DNA of 53,414 nucleotides from a virus. Its lineage: Duplodnaviria; Caudoviricetes. Within the stretch, counting starts at the first letter, position 1; each line of letters begins with the position of its first letter. The position numbers were made by a program, and so were the translations under genes. Of the stretch, positions 21-30,925 are shown in pieces. Location of the stretch: positions 1 to 53,414 of IMG/VR virus record IMGVR_UViG_3300014208_000053; one strand, 5' to 3'. The notes beneath the pieces were generated by a model that was not told the DNA's origin, made no database searches, and was given only the letters and a program-made list of their open reading frames with translations.

Positions 21-1298
21 TTAGAGGTCCAGGACAGCGTTGGTCGAGGGAGTGGTAACGGGTTCTTCGACTTCCACAGGAGCAGCCTTCACAGCCCGGA
101 TGTTGACTGGGAAGCGCTTCAGGAAGTCATGGATGCCAGGTTTGTCGCCGAGCGGCGGCAAGGGCGTCGGAGGCGGGGGCGGAGGAGGGAGCACTTCATA
201 CGCGACGGGCTTATCAGGCAGCGGCGGCAGGGGCTCGTAGACGGGCTTGGGCAAGCCGGCGCCGGCCTTCGACGTGGTGGGTGCAAGAATGCCTTCAGCG
301 TTGAGACGCATGACCGGCGAGCTGATGGGCTCGATGGTCTTCTCGATGTGGCCATGGGCGATCTGCAACGTAGTCAGCTGGGCTTCCAGCGCCCGGGCTT
401 CGACCTTGGCGAGGCCGGCTGCTTCGTTGTCCCCAGCGTTGGTGGCCTTGATGCTGCGCTCGACGGCGTCGTTGAAGGCCTTCAGCAGTCCTTCATTGCG
501 ACGGGTGAGATAGTTGCGGCGTGCTGAGGCCATGCGCTGGTTGCGTTCGATGGACGAAGCGTACTTCGCCAGCACCTCCTTGGGCCAGCTCTTGTTGAAC
601 CGGCAGCGCAGCGAGTTCATCGTGCGGCGCACGCGATCCGGGTAGAGGTTGCAGCCAGGCAGCTCGTCGAAGGTGTAGACCGCGAACATCTTCTCATAGT
701 CGATGCCCAAGAAGGTGGCGACGAGACCAGCCTTCTCAATCGCGGGAACCGTATTCCCACACAAGATGGACTTGCACAAAGTGTCAGAATAGAAGCGCCG
801 AAGGCCATTATAGAATGACACAGGACGCTTGGGCAGCGTAGTGAGCAGGGCTTCCCACTTCCTCTGGCGCAGGGCTTCCAGCGGCTTGAGATTCGCCCGG
901 ATGTCGAGCGTGGTGTTCGGCTGCGGAAGGACGACCTTGCGATTCAGCAAGGTGTCCAAGACATCGTAGTACCGCGCATCGATCCGTCCGTAGAGCTGCC
1001 GAAGCGTGTGCGAACGCATCGTCCTCTCGTAGCTTTGCTCAGACAGAGTCTGTGGATTCGTGGTGTAGGTCGCGATGTGCAGCAGGAACTTCTCGAACGG
1101 GAAGCCCATGCGATCGAACCAGGTCGTCCACGTCTTGTACGGCGGCATCGTGACGCCCTGCTGCCAGACGGCCCACAATTCGACCGAGATTGTCTCAGGA
1201 CGTTCGCGGGTCATGATGAAGGACTGCCAAGCTCCGGTGACGAACTTGGAGAGCTTCCCGCTGGTCTTCAGCTCTTCGAGATTCTTGTGTTGTTTCAT
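21..1298 (-). CDS. Hypothetical protein with degenerate XRE/Cro-like HTH segments and a Pro-rich C-terminus
   Basis: 425-aa ORF. Segments ISVELWAVWQQGVTMPP..RMGFP and LCKSILCGNTVPAIEKAGLVATFLGID resemble XRE-type HTH ends. 4-nt overlap with the upstream gene. Confidence 0.55.
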   Translation of the reverse strand: MKQHKNLEELKTSGKLSKFVTGAWQSFIMTRERPETISVELWAVWQQGVTMPPYKTWTTWFDRMGFPFEKFLLHIATYTTNPQTLSEQSYERTMRSHTLRQLYGRIDARYYDVLDTLLNRKVVLPQPNTTLDIRANLKPLEALRQRKWEALLTTLPKRPVSFYNGLRRFYSDTLCKSILCGNTVPAIEKAGLVATFLGIDYEKMFAVYTFDELPGCNLYPDRVRRTMNSLRCRFNKSWPKEVLAKYASSIERNQRMASARRNYLTRRNEGLLKAFNDAVERSIKATNAGDNEAAGLAKVEARALEAQLTTLQIAHGHIEKTIEPISSPVMRLNAEGILAPTTSKAGAGLPKPVYEPLPPLPDKPVAYEVLPPPPPPPTPLPPLGDKPGIHDFLKRFPVNIRAVKAAPVEVEEPVTTPSTNAVLDL

Positions 1299-1846
1299 GG
1301 GCTCACCATCAGTTCGGGATCAAAGATCCGAGGATTGGTTGGCATAGGAGGGATGACGAACCCCGGTGGGAAGATCGTCCGGCCCTTCTCATCACGAGGC
1401 AGGGGAGGCTGGCCGGATTGAGCACGAAGTTGAATGTAGTCTTTCTTATAGTCCCGGCGCCAACGGTACTCTTCAGCTTTCTCGGGTGTGACAGAAGCAG
1501 CGACACCTTCGGTGCGACGCTGCTTCATGCGCCAAGCAGCCTTCTTCTTGTCCTGGGCCTTGCGAGCTTCGAGGATAACGGCGATGTAGTCCTCGAGGGT
1601 GTGGAGGTCAGGGTGGTTGAGGAATCGAAGCGCCAGCATCACCGTCTTGTCATCGACGCCGAGGAGCTTCACAACAGCCGGAAGATCCTGAATCCAAGGC
1701 GCCCGACGGCCATACTTCCAGTTACGCCAGGTCTCCAAGGGAATAGAAGCAGGCTTCTTCAAGGTCTTGATGAAACGCGACCACAACTCGGTGCTCACCT
1801 TGGTGGGCAGCTCGTGGAAGGTCGGTTCGGTGTCAGCGGGTTTCAT
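1295..1846 (-). CDS. Putative XRE/Cro-like HTH DNA-binding protein
   Basis: ASIPLETWRNWKYGRRAPWIQDLPAVVKLLGVD fits the XRE pattern (t..nWe.Gr..P....l..ia..lgv); basic helical tail. Confidence 0.55.
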   Translation of the reverse strand: MKPADTEPTFHELPTKVSTELWSRFIKTLKKPASIPLETWRNWKYGRRAPWIQDLPAVVKLLGVDDKTVMLALRFLNHPDLHTLEDYIAVILEARKAQDKKKAAWRMKQRRTEGVAASVTPEKAEEYRWRRDYKKDYIQLRAQSGQPPLPRDEKGRTIFPPGFVIPPMPTNPRIFDPELMVSP

Positions 1847-1866: not shown

Positions 1867-2088
1867 TCAGGGTTGGGGAAGGCGCGGACCTCGTTCAGAT
1901 TGGAACCGCACAGGCAGCGCCATGGTGGTCTTGTCGATGTGGATGACGCTGCCGCAGCGAGGGCAGATGATCGTCACGCTGCCACTGATCACCAGGCCGG
2001 CGCTGATGCCGAAGCCGATGTCCTCTTCGTAGCCGCAGCCGATGGTGGCGCAGCCGAAGTGGATGAGGGTTGAGTTACCGACAGGCAT
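1867..2088 (-). CDS. Small zinc-ribbon-like protein (73 aa)
   Basis: Start reassigned to ATG 2088, which overlaps the upstream TGA (TGATG). Contains CATIGC and CPRCG cysteine pairs. Confidence 0.55.
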   Translation of the reverse strand: MPVGNSTLIHFGCATIGCGYEEDIGFGISAGLVISGSVTIICPRCGSVIHIDKTTMALPVRFQSERGPRLPQP

Positions 2089-2531
2089 CAGACGGCCGTC
2101 TGGGACGAGGTGGTGACGACAGGCACCTGGAAGATGAAACCTTCCGGGTGGGCCTCGGTGTAGACCTGGATTGAAATGTTCCAGGCCAGGGCCAAGTCGT
2201 CGAAGGTCATGTCGGAGACCCACAGGCTGGTGACCCGCATGGTGGGGTCGACGGGCGGATCGCTCTGCAGGTCGAGCGTGCACTTCTGGAAGACGCCCTG
2301 GATCGCGAGCTTGGCTGCAGTGGGGTCGTTGAACCTGGTGCCCAGAAGGGCGCCGCGGATGTCGCTGCCCCAAGCCGGATCGAACTGGTCCTGGCCCGGC
2401 ACGGTCATCAGGTTCTTGTAGATCTTCTGCACCAGGTTGTAGGCCTGGTCTACGAAGTCGACGTTGGGCCAGGTAGCGGGGTAGAGGCGACCATCGGCGT
2501 CAGCCTGAACAATGAGAAGATCCAGCGGCAT
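2088..2531 (-). CDS. Baseplate wedge protein, T4 gp25/GPW-like
   Basis: 147 aa. IYKNLMTVPGQDQFDPAWGSDI matches the gp25 'l.T.pGe..f.P.fGs.l' motif; C-terminal beta strands. Confidence 0.7.
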   Translation of the reverse strand: MPLDLLIVQADADGRLYPATWPNVDFVDQAYNLVQKIYKNLMTVPGQDQFDPAWGSDIRGALLGTRFNDPTAAKLAIQGVFQKCTLDLQSDPPVDPTMRVTSLWVSDMTFDDLALAWNISIQVYTEAHPEGFIFQVPVVTTSSQTAV

Positions 2532-2671
2532 GGCTGTGGTCCTGTGAGGGGATGAACGGGACGATAGAGAGGACTCGTCAGAGTCAAGAGAGTCCTAATA
2601 AACAATAGACGCTCAGGCACCGGGTTTGAGTTCTCCACAGGTCGAGAGCGAAAAACAGGATCATTTACGTC

Positions 2672-3029
2672 GTACTCATATTGTCAGCGACGCCGTCTCT
2701 ATGGTTAGGAGAACGCGGGCATTTATACTACTAGACTTAGAACAAAATACTGGGGGAAGATGGCTACGGGGTCCATAGCCAGACTGAAAAAGATCTGTTC
2801 TTCTGTATGGACACAAAAGTGAGATTTTTATGAGTTCGTATGGAGTCTAAAATCAATACTGGCGAGTTCTGATCTTCAACCCTTTTGTGTCCATACACCC
2901 GAACAGATCTTTTCTCTTAGGGCTATGGAGCCCGTATCCCAGCTGAATGCACTTTTTCCTGTAAACCACTGCGCCACAAGTACCCCGTTCTCCTAACCAT
3001 AGAGACGGCGTCGCTGACAATATGAGTAC
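2672..3029. repeat. Segmented long inverted repeat in an AT-rich divergent intergenic region
   Basis: 2672-2715 is the exact reverse complement of 2986-3029 (44 bp). 2765-2780 pairs with 2921-2936 (1 mismatch). 2788-2819 pairs with 2882-2913 (3-nt internal mismatch). All share one axis at 2850/2851. Confidence 0.95.
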
Positions 3030-3225
3030 CATGTATTTTACTTATATCGATGACGATTTTTATCCTTTCGCCACCACTTCCTGGTCTCATTTTCGAGCAC
3101 CATAAACTTCTCCACGTCGCGGTGAGTTTTCCACAACGTTTCGTGCCCACTTCCGGGACACGTCACAAGATGCTTGCCATCTTCGTTAGTGCCCTAGTAT
3201 GAGCCCACCTCAACCTGGAATCCCT

Positions 3226-3801
3226 ATGACCGACCCCGTCGATCCCAACCTTGCTGAGCGCAACGCCGCGCTCGCTGAACTGACTGCCAAGCTGGCCCAT
3301 CTGGACGCCCAGATCGAGGCCCTCGGCGAGGCCGCCCAGGACAAGCGCCGGAAGCTCCGCGAGGAGTACCGCGCCGCCCACGAGAAGCGGTTCAGCGACG
3401 TCGACTACAAGCGCGCCCTGGTCGGCGCCAAGAACGAGCACGCCGTGACCGTGAAGGGTGTGGTCTCGTTCTTCATCCGTGCCCCGAACGCGGCCACGAC
3501 CCATGCGGTGGACAAGTTCATCGCCGAGCCCGTCCTGCAGGATGAAACCGATAAGACCAAGGGCACGCCCATGGGGCCTGTCACCGAGGCTGAGCGCATG
3601 CTCATGGCCTGGGTCGTCGCCGTGCACCTGCTGGCTGACCCGTCGGCCAAGCGCCAGGACATCGAGCAGCTTTCTCCCGGCCACCGCCTGCGCATGGTGC
3701 GCGGACTGCCTGAGAGCCTCATCCAGCGCGTCGCCGAAGAGTGCAGCCTGCTGCAGAGCTGGCTCAACGTGGTCCTGGAGATCGAACTGGGAAACTTCTA
3801 A
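3226..3801 (+). CDS. Putative tail assembly chaperone (gpG-like)
   Basis: Ends in the G GGA AAC slippery heptamer one codon before its stop; lies upstream of the tape measure gene. Alternative start at 3199. Confidence 0.6.
   Translation: MTDPVDPNLAERNAALAELTAKLAHLDAQIEALGEAAQDKRRKLREEYRAAHEKRFSDVDYKRALVGAKNEHAVTVKGVVSFFIRAPNAATTHAVDKFIAEPVLQDETDKTKGTPMGPVTEAERMLMAWVVAVHLLADPSAKRQDIEQLSPGHRLRMVRGLPESLIQRVAEECSLLQSWLNVVLEIELGNF
3789..3795 (+). other. -1 programmed ribosomal frameshift site GGGAAAC
   Basis: CTG GGA AAC TTC TAA: X XXY YYZ heptamer in the correct phase. The -1 frame (GKLLSDPFVWY...) is open to 4166. Confidence 0.8.
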
Positions 3802-4166
3802 GCGATCCCTTCGTCTGGTACGCGGTGAACGCGGACATCGATGGGATCGCGCCATTCTCAGAAGAGCCACGAGAACGCCTGCGCTTCATGGTCTACGAAC
3901 ACCGGATGTTCGTCGAGGCCCTGAAGACCAAGGCGTTGTTGATCGCCGCCATCAATCCCGAGCGCGCCGAGAAGGCTGCGCAGGATTACATGGAAGCCGC
4001 GATCCCGATCAGCGAGGAAGCGCGCGACGAGCAGATGCGTGCGCGTGAGCGTCAGCTCGCTGAGCTGGCTGACATGAAACCCATCCACCTGAGCCAGCTC
4101 AAGGCCGGCCCAGCGATGGAAGGCTCGAAGGAGTGGGTGGCGACGAGTATGCACCACCCACGCTAG
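3789..4166 (+). CDS. Frameshift extension of the tail chaperone (gpT-like part of gpGT)
   Basis: The -1 frame ORF has no convincing independent start and reads as a plausible protein only after the slippery site. Confidence 0.65.
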   Translation, partial: GKLLSDPFVWYAVNADIDGIAPFSEEPRERLRFMVYEHRMFVEALKTKALLIAAINPERAEKAAQDYMEAAIPISEEARDEQMRARERQLAELADMKPIHLSQLKAGPAMEGSKEWVATSMHHPR

Positions 4167-4420
4167 GCCTTTGCATTCACCGTCCGCTGCCATGGCGAAT
4201 CTCTATCGAGCTGCTTGATCTCCACGCCTTTCCTAGCACAGGCTGTGACGGTGTCCCAGCTCGAGAGGTTGAAGATGCAGCCTCCAGGCATGGTGATGAA
4301 GGCTTCCCATCGTTCCACATCCTGTCGGCGCCAGAATCCGTCTGCTGTTGAAATATCTTCTGCTTCACATGGGTAGCCCGCATCGGTTAGACGCTTTGCG
4401 AGACGTTGCTTTGGGCTCAT
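4163..4420 (-). CDS. Small hypothetical protein
   Basis: 85-aa ORF; ATGA overlap with the upstream gene; stop shares CTAG with the convergent gene. Confidence 0.6.
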   Translation of the reverse strand: MSPKQRLAKRLTDAGYPCEAEDISTADGFWRRQDVERWEAFITMPGGCIFNLSSWDTVTACARKGVEIKQLDRDSPWQRTVNAKA

Positions 4421-4647
4421 CTGGCAGCCATCGCTTGGTGCCGCTCGCAGGGTTCGTCCTCAGAGCAGCAGTCGGTGATGCCGTAGCGAACGCCATCGAC
4501 GATGCAGGGCTTCAACCACACGCGCTCACCGAAGGGATTGGTGACGAGCATGTCCTTCTGCCAGCGTAGCGCTGCGAGCAGTTCCTTCGCTTCATCCACA
4601 GTGGGTGGGGTCGCATCGAGCGACTGCACCATCTTCGACATTGTCAT
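4417..4647 (-). CDS. Small Cys-containing hypothetical protein
   Basis: 76 aa; GGAGG Shine-Dalgarno upstream; DCCSEDEPCERH C-terminus. Confidence 0.6.
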   Translation of the reverse strand: MTMSKMVQSLDATPPTVDEAKELLAALRWQKDMLVTNPFGERVWLKPCIVDGVRYGITDCCSEDEPCERHQAMAAR

Positions 4648-4656
4648 GTTGGCCTC

Positions 4657-4959
4657 CTAGTTCAGTGAGGGTTTGACCTGCTCCCAGGTGGGCGCAGGTC
4701 GATTGCGTGCGGCCTCTTCCGTAGCCATGCGCTTGATGATCTCGTCGACCACTGCAGCGTTGAGCGGCCTGGCCAGCTTTGCATCGAGGTAGGCGAACGA
4801 GTAGTGCTCGAGCCTCAGCCGCGCATCCACGGCCTTTGCCATCACCTCGTCGAAGACGAACAGCTCGGGCTCCACAGGATCCATGGCCATGATGGGCTTG
4901 CCACCACCAGCGATGACCGACGGCGCGTCACCGACGATGTCCCTGATGAATCGCATCAT
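4657..4959 (-). CDS. Small hypothetical protein
   Basis: Start reassigned to MMRFIRD at 4959 after an AAGGAG SD; first gene of a three-gene reverse-strand cassette. Confidence 0.55.
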   Translation of the reverse strand: MMRFIRDIVGDAPSVIAGGGKPIMAMDPVEPELFVFDEVMAKAVDARLRLEHYSFAYLDAKLARPLNAAVVDEIIKRMATEEAARNRPAPTWEQVKPSLN

Positions 4960-5131
4960 GCACTCCTTGGGGTTGCTGCTCTCCGTGGCGAAGAAGCGGA
5001 CGTGCCTGAGGCACGGATAGCTGGACATAAGATTGCTCCTTTGGGTTACTCTAACCCTTATCTCAGCATCCACGGTGGATTTCACCTCCCCATCGCTTTT
5101 CTTTACCTCTAGCGCCCGTATTCTCCAGCCC

Positions 5132-5335
5132 ATGGCCCCAACCCACCCCAGCGAAGCTGAAACCCGCCAGCTGCCCGCGTTGAAGAGCCCGTCGGCCGCC
5201 GAGCGCGACCTAATGGCCTTCCTCGAGTCAGCCGGCCAGGGCTGCATCAGCGGCAACGTCGCTGACTGGCCCCAGCTCAAGCCTGCCTGCCGTTGGGCTG
5301 CTGAAGAGATCAAGCGTCTGAGGGGTTTGAAGTGA
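5132..5335 (+). CDS. Small hypothetical protein
   Basis: MAPTHPSE... start 7 nt after TATTCT; GTGA overlap with the next gene. Confidence 0.55.
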   Translation: MAPTHPSEAETRQLPALKSPSAAERDLMAFLESAGQGCISGNVADWPQLKPACRWAAEEIKRLRGLK

Positions 5336-21198: not shown

Positions 21199-21981
21199 AT
21201 GACCTTCCGCCCTCTCCCCTCTGCCCCGATGTCAGAGACGCCTGCCCAGAAGGACACGCGCCTCTACGAGGAATGGCACGATGCCCCGACGGGTTGGACC
21301 AAGGACCAGGCCTTCGATCGGCTGACGAAGAACCTCGAGGGCGCAGTCATGTCGGCGGTCAACACTTACCGGGCTGCCCCGGTGCCGACGCAGACCATGG
21401 AACTCGAGGCCAAGCGCCTCGCCGGGCAGGCGATCAAGGACTGGGATCCGAAGGGAGGCATGCCCCTCGCCTCCTACATCGGAACCATGGTCCGCCAGCG
21501 TCTCTACCGCTGGGTCACCGCGCACCAGAACGTAGCGCGCATCCCCGAGGCTCAGGTCGGCCAGATCGGCCACTTCCAGCTCGCCATCAACGATCTCTCC
21601 AGCCGCTTCGGCCGCGAGCCGACAACCGATGAGATCGCCGAGCATATGTCGATCCACCCGAAGTACGTCAGCCGGCTGCGCCGCGCACTGCGCAGCGATC
21701 TCATCGCCAGCAACGCGATGGACGCTGAGGGCGACGAGGGATCGATGGCCGACAGCATCGAGGACATCCCGCATGACGTCGACTACGAGCGGGCGATGCT
21801 CGGCTATTACAGCCTGAATGAGCAGGAAAAGCACGTCTTCGACTACTCGCTCGGCGCGCACGGACAGCCCAAGCTGAAGCCCGGCGAGATCGCGGTGAAG
21901 CTGAAGCTCAGCCCGGCACGCATCAGCGCGCTGAAGGAATCCGTCGGCGCGAAGATCAAGCCGTACCTGCGGGCCGGCTGA
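21199..21981 (+). CDS. Sigma-70 family RNA polymerase sigma factor (regions 2, 3, 4)
   Basis: Region 2: AIKDWDPKGGMPLASYI..VRQ...VARIP. Region 3: FGREPTTDEIAEHM. Region 4 HTH: LNEQEKHVF...EIAVKLKLSPARIS. Confidence 0.85.
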   Translation: MTFRPLPSAPMSETPAQKDTRLYEEWHDAPTGWTKDQAFDRLTKNLEGAVMSAVNTYRAAPVPTQTMELEAKRLAGQAIKDWDPKGGMPLASYIGTMVRQRLYRWVTAHQNVARIPEAQVGQIGHFQLAINDLSSRFGREPTTDEIAEHMSIHPKYVSRLRRALRSDLIASNAMDAEGDEGSMADSIEDIPHDVDYERAMLGYYSLNEQEKHVFDYSLGAHGQPKLKPGEIAVKLKLSPARISALKESVGAKIKPYLRAG

Positions 21982-24562: not shown

Positions 24563-27010
24563 ATGCCCGTCGATCCCGATGCCTTCAAGGGCACCTCCTT
24601 CGCAGCCGTAAATCGCGAACTGGTCGGTCGTACCATCGAATCGGTGGCGAAGATCTTCCCGATGAAGACCGAGGATGGGAAGCTCGAGGTCCGAGCGACC
24701 AACGTCAAGATCGATGACACCAAGCACGACCCCTACGACCTGAACGCCTGGCAGGCGGCCCGGGAGCAGGGCGGCTCGGTGACGGCGCCGGTGACGGCCG
24801 ATCTGGCCCTCTACCGCGACGGCAAGCGGGTGCAGACCCGCAGCAACGCCAAGATCGGTGAGCTGCCGCTCATGGGGTCCACCGGCACCTTCATGGTCGG
24901 CGGCAACGACTGGTTCACGCCCTTCGCCCAGTTCCGCCTCAAGCCCGGCATCTACTCGCGACAGAAGGTCAACGGCGAGTACGAGTCGTTCATGCCCATG
25001 CAGGGCGCCTCGATGACGGTGTGGATGGACCCGGCCAAGGGCCAGTTCAAGCTCTCCCACGGCTCGACCAACGTCGGGCTCTACCCGGTGCTCAAGGCCC
25101 TGGGCAAGACCGATGAAGAGATCATCCAGGCCTGGGGCGGCGACCAGCGGGCGCGCGAGCTGCTCGAGCAGAACAAGGTCGACCGCGGCGAAAAGGACAT
25201 CGACAAGCTGTTCGAATCCGTCTTCCACCTGAAGCAGAACCGCGACCTGCTCAAGGGTGGCGTCATCAAGGTCGATGAGAGCCTTTCCGGTGTCGACCAG
25301 GCGGGCAAGATCACCGCGCTCAAGCAGTGGATCGATTCAAAGCACCTCGACCCCTACGTCACCAAGAAGACCGTCGGCCAGCCGATCGACAAGCCGAACG
25401 AGACTGCCTTCATGCTGGCCTCGCGGAAGATCCTCGACGTGCAGCGCGGCGACGCCGACCCTGACATCCGCGACTCGCCCCATTTCAAGACGGCCCACAA
25501 CATCGCCGACCTGATGGCTGAGCGTGTCGAGCGCAACGCCTGGCGCATGCAGAAGAAGCTCTTCCAGCGCCTGCGGAAGGGCGACGACGTCACCCTCGGC
25601 GAAGCCATGGGTCCTGCCTTCCTCGAACCGCTCACCACCGGGTTCTTCGGCGGCGCCGGCGGCATCGAAGGTGGCATGGCCCACACGGCTGAGGGCGCGA
25701 ACCCGCTGGCCCTGGCCAGCGAGCAGTCCAAGACCACGTTCATGGGGCCTGGCGGCATCATGGACATGCACGCGGTTTCGAAGGAGTCGCGCCTGTTCCA
25801 GCCTGGTGCGCTGGGCTTCATCGATCCAGTCCACAGCCCGGAAGGTGCTGCCGTCGGACTGAACGTCCACGCGGTGGCCAACGCCCGCAAGTCGGGCAAC
25901 ACCCTCGTCGCCCGGTTCATCCCGGTGCTCAACGGCCGGGCCAAGTGGGACCAGCGCAGCGTGCTCTCCGTCGAGGACGCGAACGACACCACGATCGGAT
26001 ACCCCGAGTTCTGGGATGAGAAGACTGGCCTGCCGGTCGACCCCTACACCGGCGAGAAGAACCCGCAGACGGTGCGTGCGAACCGGGACAACGAGATCCT
26101 CGAGGTTCACCCGACCGAGGTGAAGTACCTGTTGCCCAAGGGCACCGACGCCTTCGACCATGTCGGCAACGCTGCCGGCTTCTTCGCCAACACGCACCCC
26201 AACCGCGGCATGATGGCTGGCAAGCACATCACCCAGGCCCTGCCGCTGGTCTACCGCGAGCTGCCCCTGTCGACGCTGAAGACCAGCGATGGCAAGGATG
26301 TGATGACTGTGCTCGGTCACGGCAGCACTGTGAGCGCCCGTAACCCCGGCACCGTGACCAAGATCACCGAGAACGGCATCTGGGTCGATGGCGTGAAGCA
26401 CGCGATCTTCGACCGCTACCCGATGCAGGCCAAGGTGTCGATCGACCACACCCCGGTGGTGAAGGTCGGCGACGTCGTCAAGAAGGGCGATCTGCTGGCG
26501 GACTCGAACTACACCAAGGATGGCCAGCTCGCCCTCGGCGTGAACCTCCGCTCGGCCTACATCCCGTGGAAGAACGCGTCGAACTACGAGGACGCGATCG
26601 TCATCAGCGAGACCGCTGCGAAGAAGCTCACCAGCGACCACACCCACCGCCATGAGCTGATCCTCGACGAGGGAATCAAGGTCGACCCCAAGCTGTTCAT
26701 TGCCCAGTTCCCGACCCTGCTGACCCGTGAGATGGTCGGAAAGCTCGGCACTGACGGTGTGGTCCAGGAAGGCCAGGAGGTCAAGCCCGGCGACGTGCTG
26801 ATCGCTGCCGTCCGTGCCCGCAAGTACGACGAGTACGACCGCTCAGCGAAGAACCTCTCCAGCATCCACAAGATGCTCGAGCGGCCGTGGCTCGACGCGA
26901 GCGTGAAGTGGGATGAGGACTACATCGGCAAGGTCAACCGCATCGTGCGGTCGCCGGACAAGATCGAGATCCACATCCAGACCGCTGAGCCCATGCGCGT
27001 CGGCGACTAG
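24563..27010 (+). CDS. rpoB: Multisubunit-type RNA polymerase beta subunit, N-terminal part (ends at an in-frame TAG)
   Basis: GELPLMGSTGTF, IDPVHSPEG..VGL, RGMMAG....QALPL, LALGVNL..AYIPW...NYEDAIVISE; ends MRVGD*. Confidence 0.92.
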   Translation: MPVDPDAFKGTSFAAVNRELVGRTIESVAKIFPMKTEDGKLEVRATNVKIDDTKHDPYDLNAWQAAREQGGSVTAPVTADLALYRDGKRVQTRSNAKIGELPLMGSTGTFMVGGNDWFTPFAQFRLKPGIYSRQKVNGEYESFMPMQGASMTVWMDPAKGQFKLSHGSTNVGLYPVLKALGKTDEEIIQAWGGDQRARELLEQNKVDRGEKDIDKLFESVFHLKQNRDLLKGGVIKVDESLSGVDQAGKITALKQWIDSKHLDPYVTKKTVGQPIDKPNETAFMLASRKILDVQRGDADPDIRDSPHFKTAHNIADLMAERVERNAWRMQKKLFQRLRKGDDVTLGEAMGPAFLEPLTTGFFGGAGGIEGGMAHTAEGANPLALASEQSKTTFMGPGGIMDMHAVSKESRLFQPGALGFIDPVHSPEGAAVGLNVHAVANARKSGNTLVARFIPVLNGRAKWDQRSVLSVEDANDTTIGYPEFWDEKTGLPVDPYTGEKNPQTVRANRDNEILEVHPTEVKYLLPKGTDAFDHVGNAAGFFANTHPNRGMMAGKHITQALPLVYRELPLSTLKTSDGKDVMTVLGHGSTVSARNPGTVTKITENGIWVDGVKHAIFDRYPMQAKVSIDHTPVVKVGDVVKKGDLLADSNYTKDGQLALGVNLRSAYIPWKNASNYEDAIVISETAAKKLTSDHTHRHELILDEGIKVDPKLFIAQFPTLLTREMVGKLGTDGVVQEGQEVKPGDVLIAAVRARKYDEYDRSAKNLSSIHKMLERPWLDASVKWDEDYIGKVNRIVRSPDKIEIHIQTAEPMRVGD

Positions 27011-27016
27011 CTCTCG

Positions 27017-30000
27017 ATGGGATCAGCTGCCAAGGGCACGATCGCAGAGATCACCCCCGACCACGAGATGCCGACCGATGAGAAGGGCCGGCCGCTCGAG
27101 GTCATCTTCAACCCCCACGGCGTCTCCGGCCGCATCAACCCGTCGCAGACGCTCGAGCAGGCCGTCGGCAAGCTCGTGCGCGACCACGGGGTGAAGTTCG
27201 ACCACGTCAACTTCGGCGACAACAAGGTCGCCGATCGCGTGCAGGCCCTGCTCGATGAGCACAAGGTGAAGCACGAGGAACGGCTGTTCGATCCGGTCGA
27301 GGGCCGGCACATCGAGAACCCCGTTCCGGTCGGCTACAACTACGTCTACAAGCTCGATCACCCGGTGCGCAAGAAGTTCAGCGCCCGCACGCGTGACGGC
27401 TACACGATGGACGAGGCGCCGACGGCCGGCCGCGGCAAGGGCGGCCAGTCCTTCGACGGCCTGCAGACCTACGCCCTGCTGGGCCATAACGCCCACGCCA
27501 TCCTCGGCGAGAGCATGGGCGTGCGTGGGGCGAAGAACGACGACTACTGGGTGGCCTACCAGGCGGGCGAGAAGCCGCCGGCGCCGAAGGTGCCGTTCGT
27601 CTTCGAGAAGCTGCGCGCGATGATGGCGGCCTCGGGTATCGACTCGCAGCAGCACGGCAACGCTCTGCACTTCATGCCGATGACCGACGCGAACACGTTG
27701 AAGCGTTCGAACGGCGAGATCCAGAAGGCGAGCCTGGTGCGCGCGAAGGACCTTGCTGAAGAGAAGGGCGGGCTGTTCGACGTCGCCACCACCGGCGGCC
27801 TCAAGGGCGACAAGTGGTCGCACATCGACCTCGGCCGCAAGGTGCCGCATCCGCTCTACGAGAAGGTCATCAAGGATCTCCTCGACCTGAAGACCGCCGA
27901 CTACCTCGGGGTCATCGGCCACACCCGGCACTACAACGCCGAGACCGGCGAGTTCAGCGACCAGCCTGGTTCGAACACCACGACCGGTGAGGCCGCTTTC
28001 CGCGCAATGTTGGACTTTGACCCTGCCGAGCGGTTCAAGGAGGTGCAGAAGAAGGCTCGCACCGCCAGCGGGTCAGACCTCAACCGGCTCAACCGGGCGG
28101 CGCGCTACCTGAAGGGGCTGCAGGACGTGCGGCAGAAGCCGTTCGACGCCTACATGATTTCTCAGGTACCAGTTATCCCTCCGATGTACCGCCCGGTCAT
28201 TGAGCAGCGGAATGGCGGCCTGCGGGTCGCGGACTCGAACCTGCTCTACCGCGACCTGATCCTCACCCGCGACACCCTGCAGAAGGGCGAACAGGAAGGC
28301 TCCCTTTCAACCCAGGACCTCGCGAAGGCCCGGGTGAGCCTCTACGACGCCTACGGGGCTTTGGTCGGCGTAGGGAAAAGCCTGACGCATCGCCGGGACG
28401 CCGACCTGCGGGGCTTCGTCGACGTCATCAAGGGCAAGAACAACAAGGAGGGGCTGTTCCAGCAGCAGCTCTCCCGCCGGCGCAACGACTACACCGGCCG
28501 GTCGACCATCGAATCGGATGCTACCCTCGGCCCCGACGAGGCTGCCATCCCCGAAGACATGGCCTGGAAGATCTACCAGCCGGCCATCGTCCGGCGCCTG
28601 GCCCAGCTGGGCTGGAAGCCCGCCGACGCGATGCGCGAGGTCGAGCGCAAAGGCCTCATCGCCCGCAACGCTCTCGATGAGGAGCTGCGCACTCGGCCCA
28701 TCCTGCTCAACCGCGCGCCGTCGCTGCACCGCTGGAGCGTGTTGGCAGCGATGCCGAAGATCCACAGCGGCAAGGAAGTTCGCATCAGCCCGTTCGTGCT
28801 CGGCCCGTTCAACGCCGACATGGATGGCGACACGATGTCGGTGTTCGCGCCGCTGAGCGACAAGGGCAAGCGTGAGGCCCACGACCTCCTGCCGTCGCGG
28901 AACCTGTGGTACGACAAGGACCGCAGCCTCGCCTTCGCCGTCGACAAGGACGTCATCACCGGTCTGTTCGCCCTGACCCGCCGCGGGGTCAACAGCGGCA
29001 AGACCTACCCGACGCGCCAGGCCGCCCTCGACGCCTACAAGAACAACAAGGACGGGCTGCGCATGGACAGCCTCGTCATGATCGATGACGAGAAGAATCA
29101 GAACCTGCAGGCCGTCGGCTGGATGATCTTCGAGGGCATCGTTCCCGTGCGGTTCCTCAGCGGCATCGCGCCGCCGATCGACGGTAAGAAGCTCGCCACC
29201 ATCCTCGATCGCATCGCGAAGGAATCGCCGGCCGATTTCAACAACCTGGGGCGCAAGCTCCAGTCGGCCGGCTTCGCTTTCGCGGCCCGTGCCGGCGGCA
29301 TCGGCGGCACGGTGCAGGAGCTGGCGATCGACCGCACCAAGATCAACGCGCTGCTCGGTCAGATCGATCGCGCTGTGAAGCAGGGCAAGGGCCTCGACGA
29401 GAAGCGAAAGCTCGCGCTCGAGACCTTTGCGAAGGTGAAGCCCGAGCTCGACTCGATCATCTCCGACCACCTCGACACCATCGGCCTCGGCGGCTCGGTG
29501 TTCCTGGCTGCCAAGCCGTCGAGCAAGCTCGGCATGGATTCCTACCGCCAGATGGTCGCCAGCCCGGTGATGGTCACCGACGCCCGCGACCGTGCTATCC
29601 CGTCGGTGATCAAGTCGAGCTACGGTGGCGGCATGCTGCTGAGCGACTACATCATGGCCACGCCCGGCGCGCGGTCGGGCATGGTCGACAAGGGTCTCTC
29701 CGTGGCTGGCCCTGGCTTCCTCACCAAGGAGCTGGCGGGCAACCTCGGCCCCGTGCGAATCGAGATCAAAGACTGTGGCACCCAGGAAGGTATCCAGATC
29801 CCGCTCGATCCGCCAGAAGGCGTGAAGCAGCACGACGCTGATCTGCTCGATCGTCACCTGCTGCACGACATCCCGGGCACGAGCTTCAAGCGCAACGACG
29901 TGGTCACGCCCGAGATGCTCGCGAAGATGCGCGATGCGAAGGTGACCAGCGTCATGGTCCGCAGCCCGATGACTTGCGAAGCGGATTCGCCGCCCTGCCA

Positions 30001-30925
30001 GATGTGCGCGGGCCGTACGCCCGACGGCAAGGTCCACCCGATCGGCGCCAACATCGGCTACAACTACGGCATGACGATCGGCGAACGGTCGACCCAGCTG
30101 ACGCTGAAGAAGTTCCATTCGGGTGGAACCGTTGGGCAGGGTTCCAACCTCGCCGACGGCTTCGCTCGGCTGCGCGAGCTGCTCGCTGTCCCAGAGACCG
30201 TGAAGGGCCAGGGAACGCTTGCTGACTCAACCGGTATGGTGACCTCGGTGAAGACCGCGCCCCAGGGCGGCCACTATATCCACATCCGGCCCGAAGGTCA
30301 GTCGCCTGGCCGCGCGGATTCCATCGAGCACTATGTTCTGCCTGGCCGCAACGTCGCGGTCGTCGAGGGTGAGAAGGTGAAGCGCGGTGATCGGCTCTCC
30401 GATGGCAGCTACCGCCCGCAGGAGATCGCAGAGAAGCAGGGCCTGCTCGCTGCTCAGTCCTACGTCGTCGATGAGATGCGGAAGGCCTTCCAGCAGGCCG
30501 GTGCGATCGTGCGCAAGCCGGTGCTCGAGGTCGCAGTCGCCGCGATGATGCGCTTCATGCGGATCACCAACGATGGCGGCGAGAAGGATCTGATGGTCGG
30601 TCAGATTCTGGCCGAGCAGGCCTTCAAGGCTCGGCAGCTGAAGAACCCCAAGATCCAGGGAACGCCCGAGCTTCCGGGGTTGTCACACGTTCCGCTGGTG
30701 CGTTCGAACGACATGCTCGAGCGCCTGAACTTCCAGCGCCTCGAGGACACCCTGCGCGAGATCCCGGCCCAGGGCGGCGTCAGCGATCTGAGTGGTGCGA
30801 AGTCACCGATCCCGGGCTTCGCCTACGGCGCGGCCTTCCGTCCCGGGCAGGCCAGCTTCGAGCTGACGAAGGACCGAATCCCGCAACAGGATTCGGCCTT
30901 CAACCGGCTCGCTCATTTTACCTAG
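27017..30925 (+). CDS. rpoC: RNA polymerase beta C-terminus fused to beta' (catalytic NADMDGD)
   Basis: beta motifs: NPHGVSGRIN, YKLDH...KFSAR, GGQSF. beta' motifs: GGLFD, VPVIPPMYRP, LLNRAPSLHR, NADMDGD (28811-28831), GARSGMVD bridge helix, IGERSTQLTLKKFHSGG trigger loop. Confidence 0.95.
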   Translation: MGSAAKGTIAEITPDHEMPTDEKGRPLEVIFNPHGVSGRINPSQTLEQAVGKLVRDHGVKFDHVNFGDNKVADRVQALLDEHKVKHEERLFDPVEGRHIENPVPVGYNYVYKLDHPVRKKFSARTRDGYTMDEAPTAGRGKGGQSFDGLQTYALLGHNAHAILGESMGVRGAKNDDYWVAYQAGEKPPAPKVPFVFEKLRAMMAASGIDSQQHGNALHFMPMTDANTLKRSNGEIQKASLVRAKDLAEEKGGLFDVATTGGLKGDKWSHIDLGRKVPHPLYEKVIKDLLDLKTADYLGVIGHTRHYNAETGEFSDQPGSNTTTGEAAFRAMLDFDPAERFKEVQKKARTASGSDLNRLNRAARYLKGLQDVRQKPFDAYMISQVPVIPPMYRPVIEQRNGGLRVADSNLLYRDLILTRDTLQKGEQEGSLSTQDLAKARVSLYDAYGALVGVGKSLTHRRDADLRGFVDVIKGKNNKEGLFQQQLSRRRNDYTGRSTIESDATLGPDEAAIPEDMAWKIYQPAIVRRLAQLGWKPADAMREVERKGLIARNALDEELRTRPILLNRAPSLHRWSVLAAMPKIHSGKEVRISPFVLGPFNADMDGDTMSVFAPLSDKGKREAHDLLPSRNLWYDKDRSLAFAVDKDVITGLFALTRRGVNSGKTYPTRQAALDAYKNNKDGLRMDSLVMIDDEKNQNLQAVGWMIFEGIVPVRFLSGIAPPIDGKKLATILDRIAKESPADFNNLGRKLQSAGFAFAARAGGIGGTVQELAIDRTKINALLGQIDRAVKQGKGLDEKRKLALETFAKVKPELDSIISDHLDTIGLGGSVFLAAKPSSKLGMDSYRQMVASPVMVTDARDRAIPSVIKSSYGGGMLLSDYIMATPGARSGMVDKGLSVAGPGFLTKELAGNLGPVRIEIKDCGTQEGIQIPLDPPEGVKQHDADLLDRHLLHDIPGTSFKRNDVVTPEMLAKMRDAKVTSVMVRSPMTCEADSPPCQMCAGRTPDGKVHPIGANIGYNYGMTIGERSTQLTLKKFHSGGTVGQGSNLADGFARLRELLAVPETVKGQGTLADSTGMVTSVKTAPQGGHYIHIRPEGQSPGRADSIEHYVLPGRNVAVVEGEKVKRGDRLSDGSYRPQEIAEKQGLLAAQSYVVDEMRKAFQQAGAIVRKPVLEVAVAAMMRFMRITNDGGEKDLMVGQILAEQAFKARQLKNPKIQGTPELPGLSHVPLVRSNDMLERLNFQRLEDTLREIPAQGGVSDLSGAKSPIPGFAYGAAFRPGQASFELTKDRIPQQDSAFNRLAHFT

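Follow-up and report, generated by a model that had tools for sequence, protein, structure and literature searches.

The viral sequence IMGVR_UViG_3300014208_000053 (Duplodnaviria; Caudoviricetes), which was analysed over its whole length of 53,414 nucleotides (in the following, the window), carries a 370-bp imperfect palindrome in the only sizeable non-coding gap of a phage of ~200 kb, located between two divergent gene blocks. This element is real, highly non-random and present as a single copy, and it is placed where a master cis-site would be expected. Most likely, it represents a symmetric protein-binding control site, serving as a replication origin and/or as a promoter switch. The interpretation given to the locus in an original prediction, which was made from the letters of the sequence, turned out to be right in part. 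The window is the reverse strand of C1:53314-106727, with C1 being a contig of 200,168 bp (63.5% GC) that was phage-like in every part examined and that belongs to a 3.88-Mb bin of 122 contigs (G000; completeness 92%). Genes are located on the plus strand of C1 from position 1 to ~38.9 kb, on the minus strand from 39 to 103.5 kb and again on the plus strand from 104.2 kb to the end, and the palindrome (C1 103,693-104,062) coincides with the divergent junction of these gene blocks.

Structure and uniqueness of the palindrome

Genes of the window run leftward up to position 2531 and rightward from position 3199, and no coding signal was detected in 2532-3198, which confirms the strand switch noted in the original prediction. 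The same prediction described three inverted-repeat pairs on a common axis (paired coordinates summing to 5701) within a segment of 358 bp. All three pairs were recovered, with 44/44 matching positions in block A, 15/16 in the core of block B (2765-2780 / 2921-2936) and 29/32 in block C, and the palindrome could be enlarged to 370 bp (Table 1). A repeat search reported the arms as two pairs: the outer one (2666-2718 / 2983-3035; 53 nt, 94%, 50/53 matching) corresponds to an extended block A, while the inner one (2762-2819 / 2882-2939; 58 nt, 81%) leaves 62 nt between its arms. The claimed equal-length, unmatched spacers around a 62-nt centre were likewise found. The spacers between A and B, 43 nt each, match each other at 13/43 positions (shuffle mean 11.1; 31% of the shuffles reach 13), further unmatched stretches of 7 nt separate blocks B and C, and the centre is asymmetric. 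Outside the arms, the flanks match at 4/26 positions. Within block B, 7/8 arm positions pair around a 3-nt centre, and its sequence resembles an operator for a dimer. Copies of the motif (C/G)TATGGA(C/G) occur in all three blocks and in the centre, with spacings of 33 and 73 nt; the copy in the centre (GTATGGA) forms a direct repeat with the one in block C, 33 nt away. Of the 26 TATGG copies in the window, eight are located in the gap (half-palindrome shuffle P ~0.001), but by our own estimate this enrichment fails correction for the 512 possible 5-mers and is to be taken as a lead only.

The palindrome had been placed in the most AT-rich part of the window, which proved to be an understatement: positions 2561-3156 form the largest AT-rich island of the whole contig (596-611 bp, 46% GC), with the next one measuring 227 bp. 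The AT-richest parts are the centre, block C and the left spacer (37%, 34% and 35% GC, respectively, compared to 63.5% for C1), and the least stable stretch is 3030-3070. The element is also by far the largest inverted repeat of C1 (50/53). The runner-up (22/24), a hairpin with a 1-nt loop at C1 38977-39025, marks the precise point where the gene blocks converge and probably terminates transcription from both sides.

As single-stranded DNA, the element has a predicted folding energy of -107.8 kcal/mol, compared to -38.0 +/- 3.8 kcal/mol in 100 shuffled sequences (z -18.2), none of which was as good (0/100). Under a model of uniform 71% identity, 13 or fewer spacer matches out of 43 have a probability of P = 2.6e-8 and a perfect run of 44 bases has P ~4e-5; not a single indel was found over the 154 nt of each arm. 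Conserved blocks, spacers of equal length at chance-level identity and zero indels therefore point to selection on the sites and their spacing rather than to a recent duplication. As far as can be judged from the sequence, this block/spacer pattern argues for function, and together with the uniqueness of the element it upholds the earlier view of symmetric sites or a hairpin under selection.

With regard to uniqueness, blocks A, B and C have no second copy in C1 or elsewhere in the bin (121 further contigs), and a short-word blastn search of the gap against C1 returned only chance matches of up to 15 nt. In 596 billion bases of prokaryote genomes (GTDB) and in IMG/VR, a 24-mer taken from block A does not occur, and blastn against phage and plasmid collections yielded no match to the element. 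A site present only once would suit an origin more than it would suit a promoter or a regulon motif. No tRNA was found in the gap, and Rfam gave 0 matches in the window at the gathering score and 0 at E values up to 1 in 2400-3300, so that the structured RNA considered in the original prediction gained no support. In the literature on phage origins and palindromes, searched largely by listing, we found no description of a comparable phage element.

These data also bear on the possibility of a selfish or decaying palindrome, i.e. an insertion resembling a miniature inverted-repeat transposable element (MITE) or an old inverted duplication without any role for the phage. MITEs have long terminal inverted repeats and a less conserved interior, and the palindrome is flanked by a TA dinucleotide on both sides if its ends are set to 2668 and 3033. 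However, such a TA flank is expected by chance, the element is a single copy in C1 and in the 3.88-Mb bin, its arm 24-mer and the element itself are missing from the collections named above, the contig depths reported below fit exactly two arm copies per genome, and neutral decay would not yield 44/44 next to 13/43 without any indel. This explanation thus appears improbable.

Table 1 Coordinates of the palindrome, its sub-blocks, the neighbouring genes and the palindrome shared by two relatives. Positions refer to the window unless a contig is named.
Feature	Position	Strand	Length	Remarks
Non-coding gap between divergent gene blocks	2532..3198		667 bp	no codon-position GC signal; flanking genes on opposite strands
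Whole imperfect palindrome	2666..3035		370 bp	single axis at 2850/2851; paired coordinates sum to 5701
Block A, left	2672..2715		44 bp	44/44 complementary to 2986-3029; 9-bp dyad GACGCCGTC in mid-block
Left spacer	2719..2761		43 nt	35% GC; unrelated to right spacer
Block B, left	2762..2780			dyad-symmetric GGCTACGG-GGT-CCATAGCC, operator-like; 14/19 self-complementary
Block C, left	2788..2819		32 bp	34% GC; 29/32 with C', single contiguous 3-nt mismatch; contains AGATCT
Centre	2820..2881		62 nt	37% GC, asymmetric; 10/31 self-complementary
Block C', right	2882..2913		32 bp	29/32 with C
Block B', right	2921..2939			159 bp centre-to-centre from B; 12/19 self-complementary
Right spacer	2940..2982		43 nt	47% GC
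Block A', right	2986..3029		44 bp	separate 44-nt contig of double depth in runs X1 and X2
DnaA-box-like TTCTCCACA	2631..2639	+		1 mismatch to consensus; outside palindrome
DnaA-box-like TTTTCCACA	3127..3135	+		1 mismatch; outside palindrome
425-aa ORFan	21..1298	-	425 aa	N-terminal paralogue of the 183-aa protein; proline-rich tail
183-aa ORFan, candidate DNA-binding protein	1295..1846	-	183 aa	weak helix-turn-helix lead
Small Cys-rich ORF	1867..2088	-	73 aa	ATG overlaps stop of gp25-like gene; read from sequence
gp25-like baseplate wedge / sheath-initiator protein	2088..2531	-	147 aa	first gene of leftward operon
First rightward gene	3199..3801	+	200 aa	coiled-coil-like; GC3 0.85; Pfam matches sub-threshold only
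G061/G062 palindrome	L026:1241-1489 (G061 61241-61489); L052:3035-3270 (G062 163035-163270)			

The locus was further examined in two public groundwater runs from different studies (X1 and X2), which contain 99% of the sampled words and either of which may be the source of the record; both were analysed as k=31 contigs. These contigs agree with the locus with zero differences and cover it in the pieces 1800-2701, 2686-3015, 2986-3029 (44 nt) and 3000-4200, with the breaks falling at the arms because a 44-bp inverted repeat must break a k=31 graph. The 44-nt arm piece shows about double the depth of the inner piece (23.8 vs 11.6 and 40.8 vs 19.2), indicating two arm copies per genome, and in both runs a 330-nt contig crosses the centre at normal depth. 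The arms and the inner blocks are therefore real, and so is the uninterrupted passage across the centre. How the inner 270 bp are oriented between the flanks is known solely from the original assembly; on an inversion, the X1 and X2 contigs are uninformative, as both orientations give identical 31-mers. The sole possible RNA run (X3) is probably DNA and spans only 3273-3913 of the locus, with sequence from a diverged relative.

An assembly chimera, a possibility raised in the original prediction, is consequently unlikely, with the contigs of X1 and X2 showing the palindrome independently. The same holds for two related views, namely that inverted terminal repeats were joined in assembly or that the element is a genome end of the hairpin-telomere type processed by a protelomerase. 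It is true that the flanks meet only via the shared 44-mer in the k=31 graphs, so that their order is not provable from the graph alone, and that the right contig (window 3000 onward, 6573 nt) is deeper than the left one in both runs (14.1 vs 7.6 and 24.4 vs 17.7). However, the centre is crossed by the 330-nt contig at normal depth in both runs, which come from different studies although either may be the source, and the flanks share the same composition and carry complementary phage gene content. Moreover, the sequences beyond the arms are unrelated (4/26), and the structure is thus not a fold-back. The tos/telRL site of the linear plasmid-prophage N15 consists of nested inverted repeats (L1-3/R1-3) around telO and resembles the element in having nested inverted-repeat pairs on one axis with unmatched stretches between them. 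In contrast to N15, the centre described here is not the perfect dyad a protelomerase site requires (10/31), and the ResT/TelK domain (PF16684) had 0 matches in the bin, which is 92% complete. Altogether, an artefact or a genome end is extremely unlikely.

Possible replication origin or promoter switch

Regarding the type of control site, we tentatively favour a bidirectional origin that is coupled to divergent promoters via mirrored binding-site arrays, a reading that we consider possible rather than probable. According to this model, each arm would carry an array of three sites (A, 44 bp; B, 17-19 bp; C, 32 bp), with the two arrays mirroring each other at fixed distances from the AT-rich 62-bp core. 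Phage DNA-binding proteins would occupy the mirrored sites and wrap or loop the DNA. The AT-rich core or the spacers could then be opened by the bound proteins. Candidates for the binders are two rapidly evolving, paralogous ORFans encoded next to the palindrome, and the neighbouring Dda-like helicase as well as nearby transcription may help to start forks in both directions. We infer the nature of the blocks as protein-binding sites, the choice of the binding proteins and the preference for an origin over a transcription switch alone.

The arrangement of C, B and A mirrored around a 62-nt core of 37% GC corresponds to the layout of palindromic origins of the viral and archaeal type, although the resemblance is confined to form. 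Such origins generally consist of an AT-rich core with inverted sites to its left and right: oriL and oriS of herpes simplex virus are palindromic, and archaeal origins contain inverted ORB elements around an AT-rich unwinding region. In common with these systems, the element would have inverted initiator-type sites on both sides of an AT-rich core, and it is found between divergent genes, at one or very few copies per genome. It differs in its asymmetric 62-nt centre, in the three site types per arm and in the unmatched stretches of 43 and 7 nt between them, and no initiator of a known family was found. A further parallel is provided by the Lactococcus phage c2, whose early and late genes diverge from a gap that contains the origin, which is coupled to an early promoter. 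Both are AT-rich, repeat-bearing non-coding gaps between divergent blocks, but there is no sequence relation, c2 lacks a 370-bp co-axial palindrome, and the origin role proposed here is based on sequence. In addition, the cumulative GC skew of C1 has its maximum at C1 103,854, inside the palindrome, and an origin would be in line with an AT-rich upstream region in one metagenomic relative: in the contig L004, encoding a gp25-like protein of 73% identity, the upstream region of the gene is AT-rich over at least 347 bp (36% vs 50% GC), although this region is unalignable with the element and too short to hold both arms.

Several observations weigh against an origin. The GC skew follows transcription, as every gene block is co-oriented with its skew, and the flip at the palindrome is explained in this way. 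At third codon positions, the coding-strand skew amounts to -0.03 over 26 counter-oriented gene calls and to -0.17 over 184 co-oriented ones; about nine of the counter-oriented calls were judged to be real, with a skew of about -0.06 by our own reading of the list, and the remaining ones are mostly antisense shadows. The residual skew corresponds to a C-rich 'leading' strand, which is the opposite of the usual sign. In three relatives whose genes point almost all the same way, the skew does not turn at the palindromes of these genomes. The flanking DnaA-like boxes of the original prediction are correctly positioned at 2631 and 3127, but they lie 496 bp apart on the same strand, are not mirror images of each other and do not exceed chance: the window contains five boxes with one mismatch compared to 2.7 expected, a number reached by 18/100 shuffles. 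Inside 2666-3035, no DnaA-type 9-mer with up to one mismatch was found, and the bin contains no cluster of three boxes in 700 bp (density 0.081 per kb). No repeated unwinding element of the 13-mer type was found beside the AT-rich stretches. A recognisable initiator was not found either, with the ORFans belonging to no family and the helix-turn-helix lead remaining below significance. Furthermore, the 44/44 arm exceeds what protein binding needs and hints at DNA-DNA pairing or recombination, and a purely transcriptional role needs fewer assumptions, as the promoters must lie in the gap anyway. Finally, among the IMG/VR records recovered with the helicase (see below), the gp25-like family was found in 0/5 records searched, and the element and its flanking genes are absent from the 4/9 records scanned whole. 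A bidirectional origin, as put forward in the original prediction, is therefore plausible with respect to the skew maximum inside the element, while the origin of the skew in transcription and the chance frequency of the DnaA boxes speak against it.

Two full DnaA-domain genes are present in the bin (C2:36576-37052, 1.7e-62; C43:27339-27821, 8.0e-49), and consensus-type boxes occur only beside the one on C43. The two genes may reflect a paralogue or a mixed bin. For the packaging site, another role offered by the original prediction, we obtained no support, the weak terminase-like ATPase of the window being encoded 35 kb from the palindrome.

A purely transcriptional switch would explain the same symmetry by assigning the arms to mirror promoter-operator modules for two divergent operons. 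In one variant, block A would be the core promoter or a common leader, with B and C as upstream regulator sites; in another, the dyad operators B, 159 bp apart, would loop out the AT-rich centre and thereby shut or open the divergent promoters. Since the genes on each side are tightly packed, the promoters of both operons must lie in the 667-bp gap, and no terminator- or promoter-like site was found in 1750-2150. An inverted repeat provides each of the divergent genes with an identical sequence in identical orientation, and conserved sites at conserved distances with free spacers resemble a promoter with upstream sites, to which the operator-like block B can be added. As the phage brings along a multisubunit RNA polymerase and a sigma-like protein of its own, its promoters need not resemble those of the sigma-70 type. 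A comparable case is the early/late switch of phage phi29, where the divergent promoters A2b/A2c and A3 are controlled through p4 binding sites that are inverted repeats. Both are compact regions between divergent units in which repeated dyad sites with fixed spacing organise, or in our case would organise, a nucleoprotein complex, but the phi29 region comprises ~220 bp with four similar sites, whereas the element has 370 bp with three distinct mirrored blocks including a perfect 44-bp pair. On the other hand, the arms contain no convincing sigma-70-type promoter (one weak match of 9/12 vs 0.5 expected), and the candidates from a relaxed scan were all weak, had 15-nt spacers and lay in the flanks beyond the palindrome. 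Upstream of other C1 genes, neither the blocks nor parts of them were found again, k-mer enrichment over 28 upstream regions revealed no usable shared motif, and 44/44 identity and a length of 370 bp exceed the known needs of phage promoter-operators. Taking both sides together, a switch without any origin function is a serious, if somewhat unlikely, alternative.

By analogy, the element would work most like the palindromic viral origins or a divergent switch of the phi29 type. It belongs to no described family. Each of the families considered differs from it in at least part of its features.

Possible DNA inversion and hairpin formation

The perfect outer arms raise the question of an invertible cassette (inverton), in which the 44-bp arms recombine and the 270-bp core flips an asymmetric element between the two gene blocks. 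Perfect arms around a non-coding, AT-rich core between divergent operons are the classic layout of promoter invertons, which are known from fimS of E. coli, the capsule promoters of Bacteroides and the flgB and cwpV switches of Clostridioides. Like these, the element has perfect inverted repeats (44/44) that bracket a few hundred non-coding bases (270 bp) near genes that could be controlled. Repeated recombination would keep the outer arms alone perfect, the asymmetric spacers and centre imply that flipping would change something, and the k=31 graphs of X1 and X2 contain nothing against a mixed population. However, no serine or tyrosine recombinase domain was found on C1: PF00239 and PF00589 had 2 and 10 matches, respectively, all on other contigs of the bin, with the reservation that C1 is possibly incomplete and that host enzymes may act. 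Unlike in known invertons, the inner part is itself mirrored; blocks B and C on the same axis are not needed for inversion and would make flipping nearly neutral, and the assembler gave one orientation across the locus. Altogether, an inverton seems unlikely. A more specific version, which we give only a slim chance, is that the flip would turn an asymmetric promoter or unwinding element from the replication/early block towards the virion block or back. Here, inversion could be catalysed by a host enzyme or an unrecognised phage enzyme or occur via homologous exchange, and owing to the mirrored inner blocks, the regulator sites would not change place on flipping.

Another explanation involves a hairpin in single-stranded nucleic acid. 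It could be a long stem-loop of a leader RNA that acts in processing or stability, or it could form when the DNA becomes single-stranded in replication, packaging or injection, for instance as a priming hairpin or as a structure that stops injection, the role suggested for the iss region of phage T5. The very strong predicted stability (-107.8 kcal/mol, z -18.2) is consistent with this, pairing would select for perfect complementarity of the outer arms, and in a different long palindrome of two relatives (G061 and G062, see below) the arms stay matched through changes on both. At a divergent junction, however, no transcript is expected across the whole element, Rfam gave no match even at E values up to 1, and the asymmetric 62-nt centre and the internal loops of 43 x 43 nt disfavour extrusion from duplex DNA. 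For T5, a large non-coding region with inverted repeat-spacer-inverted repeat units and DnaA-type boxes is described (bioRxiv 10.1101/866236). Both systems share a large non-coding region of a big phage with inverted repeats and DnaA-type boxes nearby. According to the same source, the T5 region has two 131-bp units ~3 kb apart with paired DnaA boxes inside the repeats, whereas the arms described here are adjacent and the box-like 9-mers are outside, unpaired and at chance frequency; the T5 hallmarks of paired boxes inside the repeats and of repeats kilobases apart are thus missing. In our view, a function as a hairpin is very unlikely.

An alignment of the Dda-like helicase retrieved nine IMG/VR loci (helicase 35-40% identical in the four scanned whole). 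None of the nine loci has an inverted repeat above 22/25 within 10 kb of the helicase. Nevertheless, 3/4 of the records scanned whole carry an outstanding long palindrome of their own in non-coding DNA; in the remaining one (G063), no inverted repeat above 18/21 was found. G061 (41/45) and G062 (25/27) share the same ~290-bp palindrome, which is unrelated to the element, 86% identical between the two and located between same-strand genes, with a Metallophos (Mre11/SbcD-like) gene next to it and the large terminase gene at a distance of ~1.7 kb. The differences between the two copies fall at the same positions on both arms and keep the arms matched, and long palindromes or hairpins therefore seem to be maintained in the wider phage group. 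The palindrome of G064 (51/55 with a 35-nt centre; L059:9736-9884, G064 129736-129884), again unrelated, is located in a ~700-bp non-coding gap that forms the largest AT island of this genome (318 bp, 37% vs 54% GC) and has a perfect TATAAT in each arm, pointing inwards. None of the relatives' palindromes is found at a divergent junction, in synteny with the element or at a skew turn.

Gene neighbourhood, relatives and implications

The first product of the leftward operon was modelled with AlphaFold2 (pLDDT 75.9), and a Foldseek search with the model matched T4 gp25 (5iw9_B; E 1.6e-4, TM 0.51/0.57), followed by other baseplate proteins and TssE-type chains. It follows from the match of this model to gp25-like baseplate proteins that the phage has a contractile tail. 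Further along the leftward operon, the adjacent 183-aa and 425-aa ORFans have a common N-terminal motif (E 3e-5). For the 183-aa protein, Atlas feature matches to HTH_3 and HTH_31 clusters (0.85 and 0.84) are leads only, a PDB match (2ppx, E 0.37) was not significant, and four weak homologues were found among 1.84 billion representatives. The 425-aa protein had no homologue among 5.8 billion clustered proteins, where the word filter was possibly swamped. PDB sequence searches with the three left-hand proteins gave no significant match. Just past the window, the 425-aa ORFan is followed by a Dda/RecD-like helicase of superfamily 1 (AAA_30, 1.8e-18; PIF1; UvrD_C_2) and then by many small open reading frames (ORFs), so that the two paralogous ORFans and the helicase are all encoded within 4.1 kb of the palindrome. 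On the rightward side, the 200-aa gene is followed by a 141-aa ORFan, leading into a block of virion, polymerase and terminase genes. This block is interrupted by three leftward genes (85, 76 and 218 aa) at 4163-5313 (-), which are arranged tail-to-tail with the 141-aa gene (4163/4166) and head-to-head, at 18 bp, with a 232-aa gene at 5332.

The proteins of the window include PKD/Hoc-like and He_PIG proteins as well as one DUF285 protein. The sigma-like protein is encoded at 21199-21981 (Sigma70_r3, 2.9e-9), and the RNA polymerase is of the bacterial multisubunit type with an unusual split into two genes (24563-27010 and 27017-30925): the 815-aa protein contains the Rpb2 domains 3 and 6, and the 1302-aa protein comprises the end of Rpb2 domain 6 fused to the Rpb1 domains 1, 2 and 5. 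Compared to known phages, the polymerase shows at most 31% identity. Outside the window, C1 encodes a family-A DNA polymerase, a thymidylate synthase, several helicases, an ATP-dependent ligase, an SMC/Rad50-like ATPase and radical-SAM proteins. It further contains three giant ORFs at C1 126157-143593 (1771, 1938 and 1528 aa), two of which were searched and had no Pfam match; one of the three comes after C1 132474-133185, the second-largest low-GC non-coding stretch of the contig. In X2, the contig left of the palindrome has a length of 155,633 nt, ~59 kb beyond what C1 has on that side, which means that the phage genome either continues beyond the C1 end or closes on the C1 start.

The gp25-like protein has 15 metagenomic homologues (70-88% identity) among 5.8 billion proteins, and the Dda-like helicase has six relatives at 61-72% identity. 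Two of these relatives, P0019 (helicase) and P0002 (gp25-like), are each encoded on a contig of 66,086 nt, the greatest length listed for a gp25-like relative, which makes conservation of the locus in a small clade probable. Scans of IMG/VR with single sequences of the two flanking proteins found no relatives, an alignment of the gp25-like family retrieved nothing from IMG/VR or GTDB genomes, and the gp25-like gene was present in 0/60 relatives of the host bin. In JGI metagenomes, the family was represented by two contigs only (~1.2-1.3 kb), namely L004 and a second one that has no upstream sequence.

In uncultured jumbo phages, hardly anything is known about where replication starts or how the transcription programme is organised, and the phage described here belongs to a lineage without a cultured relative. 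The palindrome stands out among the non-coding sequences of this phage by its unusually explicit architecture and provides a concrete, testable candidate for the phage's master cis-element. Should it turn out to be an origin, its sequence pattern could be used to locate origins in metagenomic phages related to this one. If, instead, it is found to flip, it would represent a new kind of phage switch, in which DNA inversion acts on the whole developmental programme.

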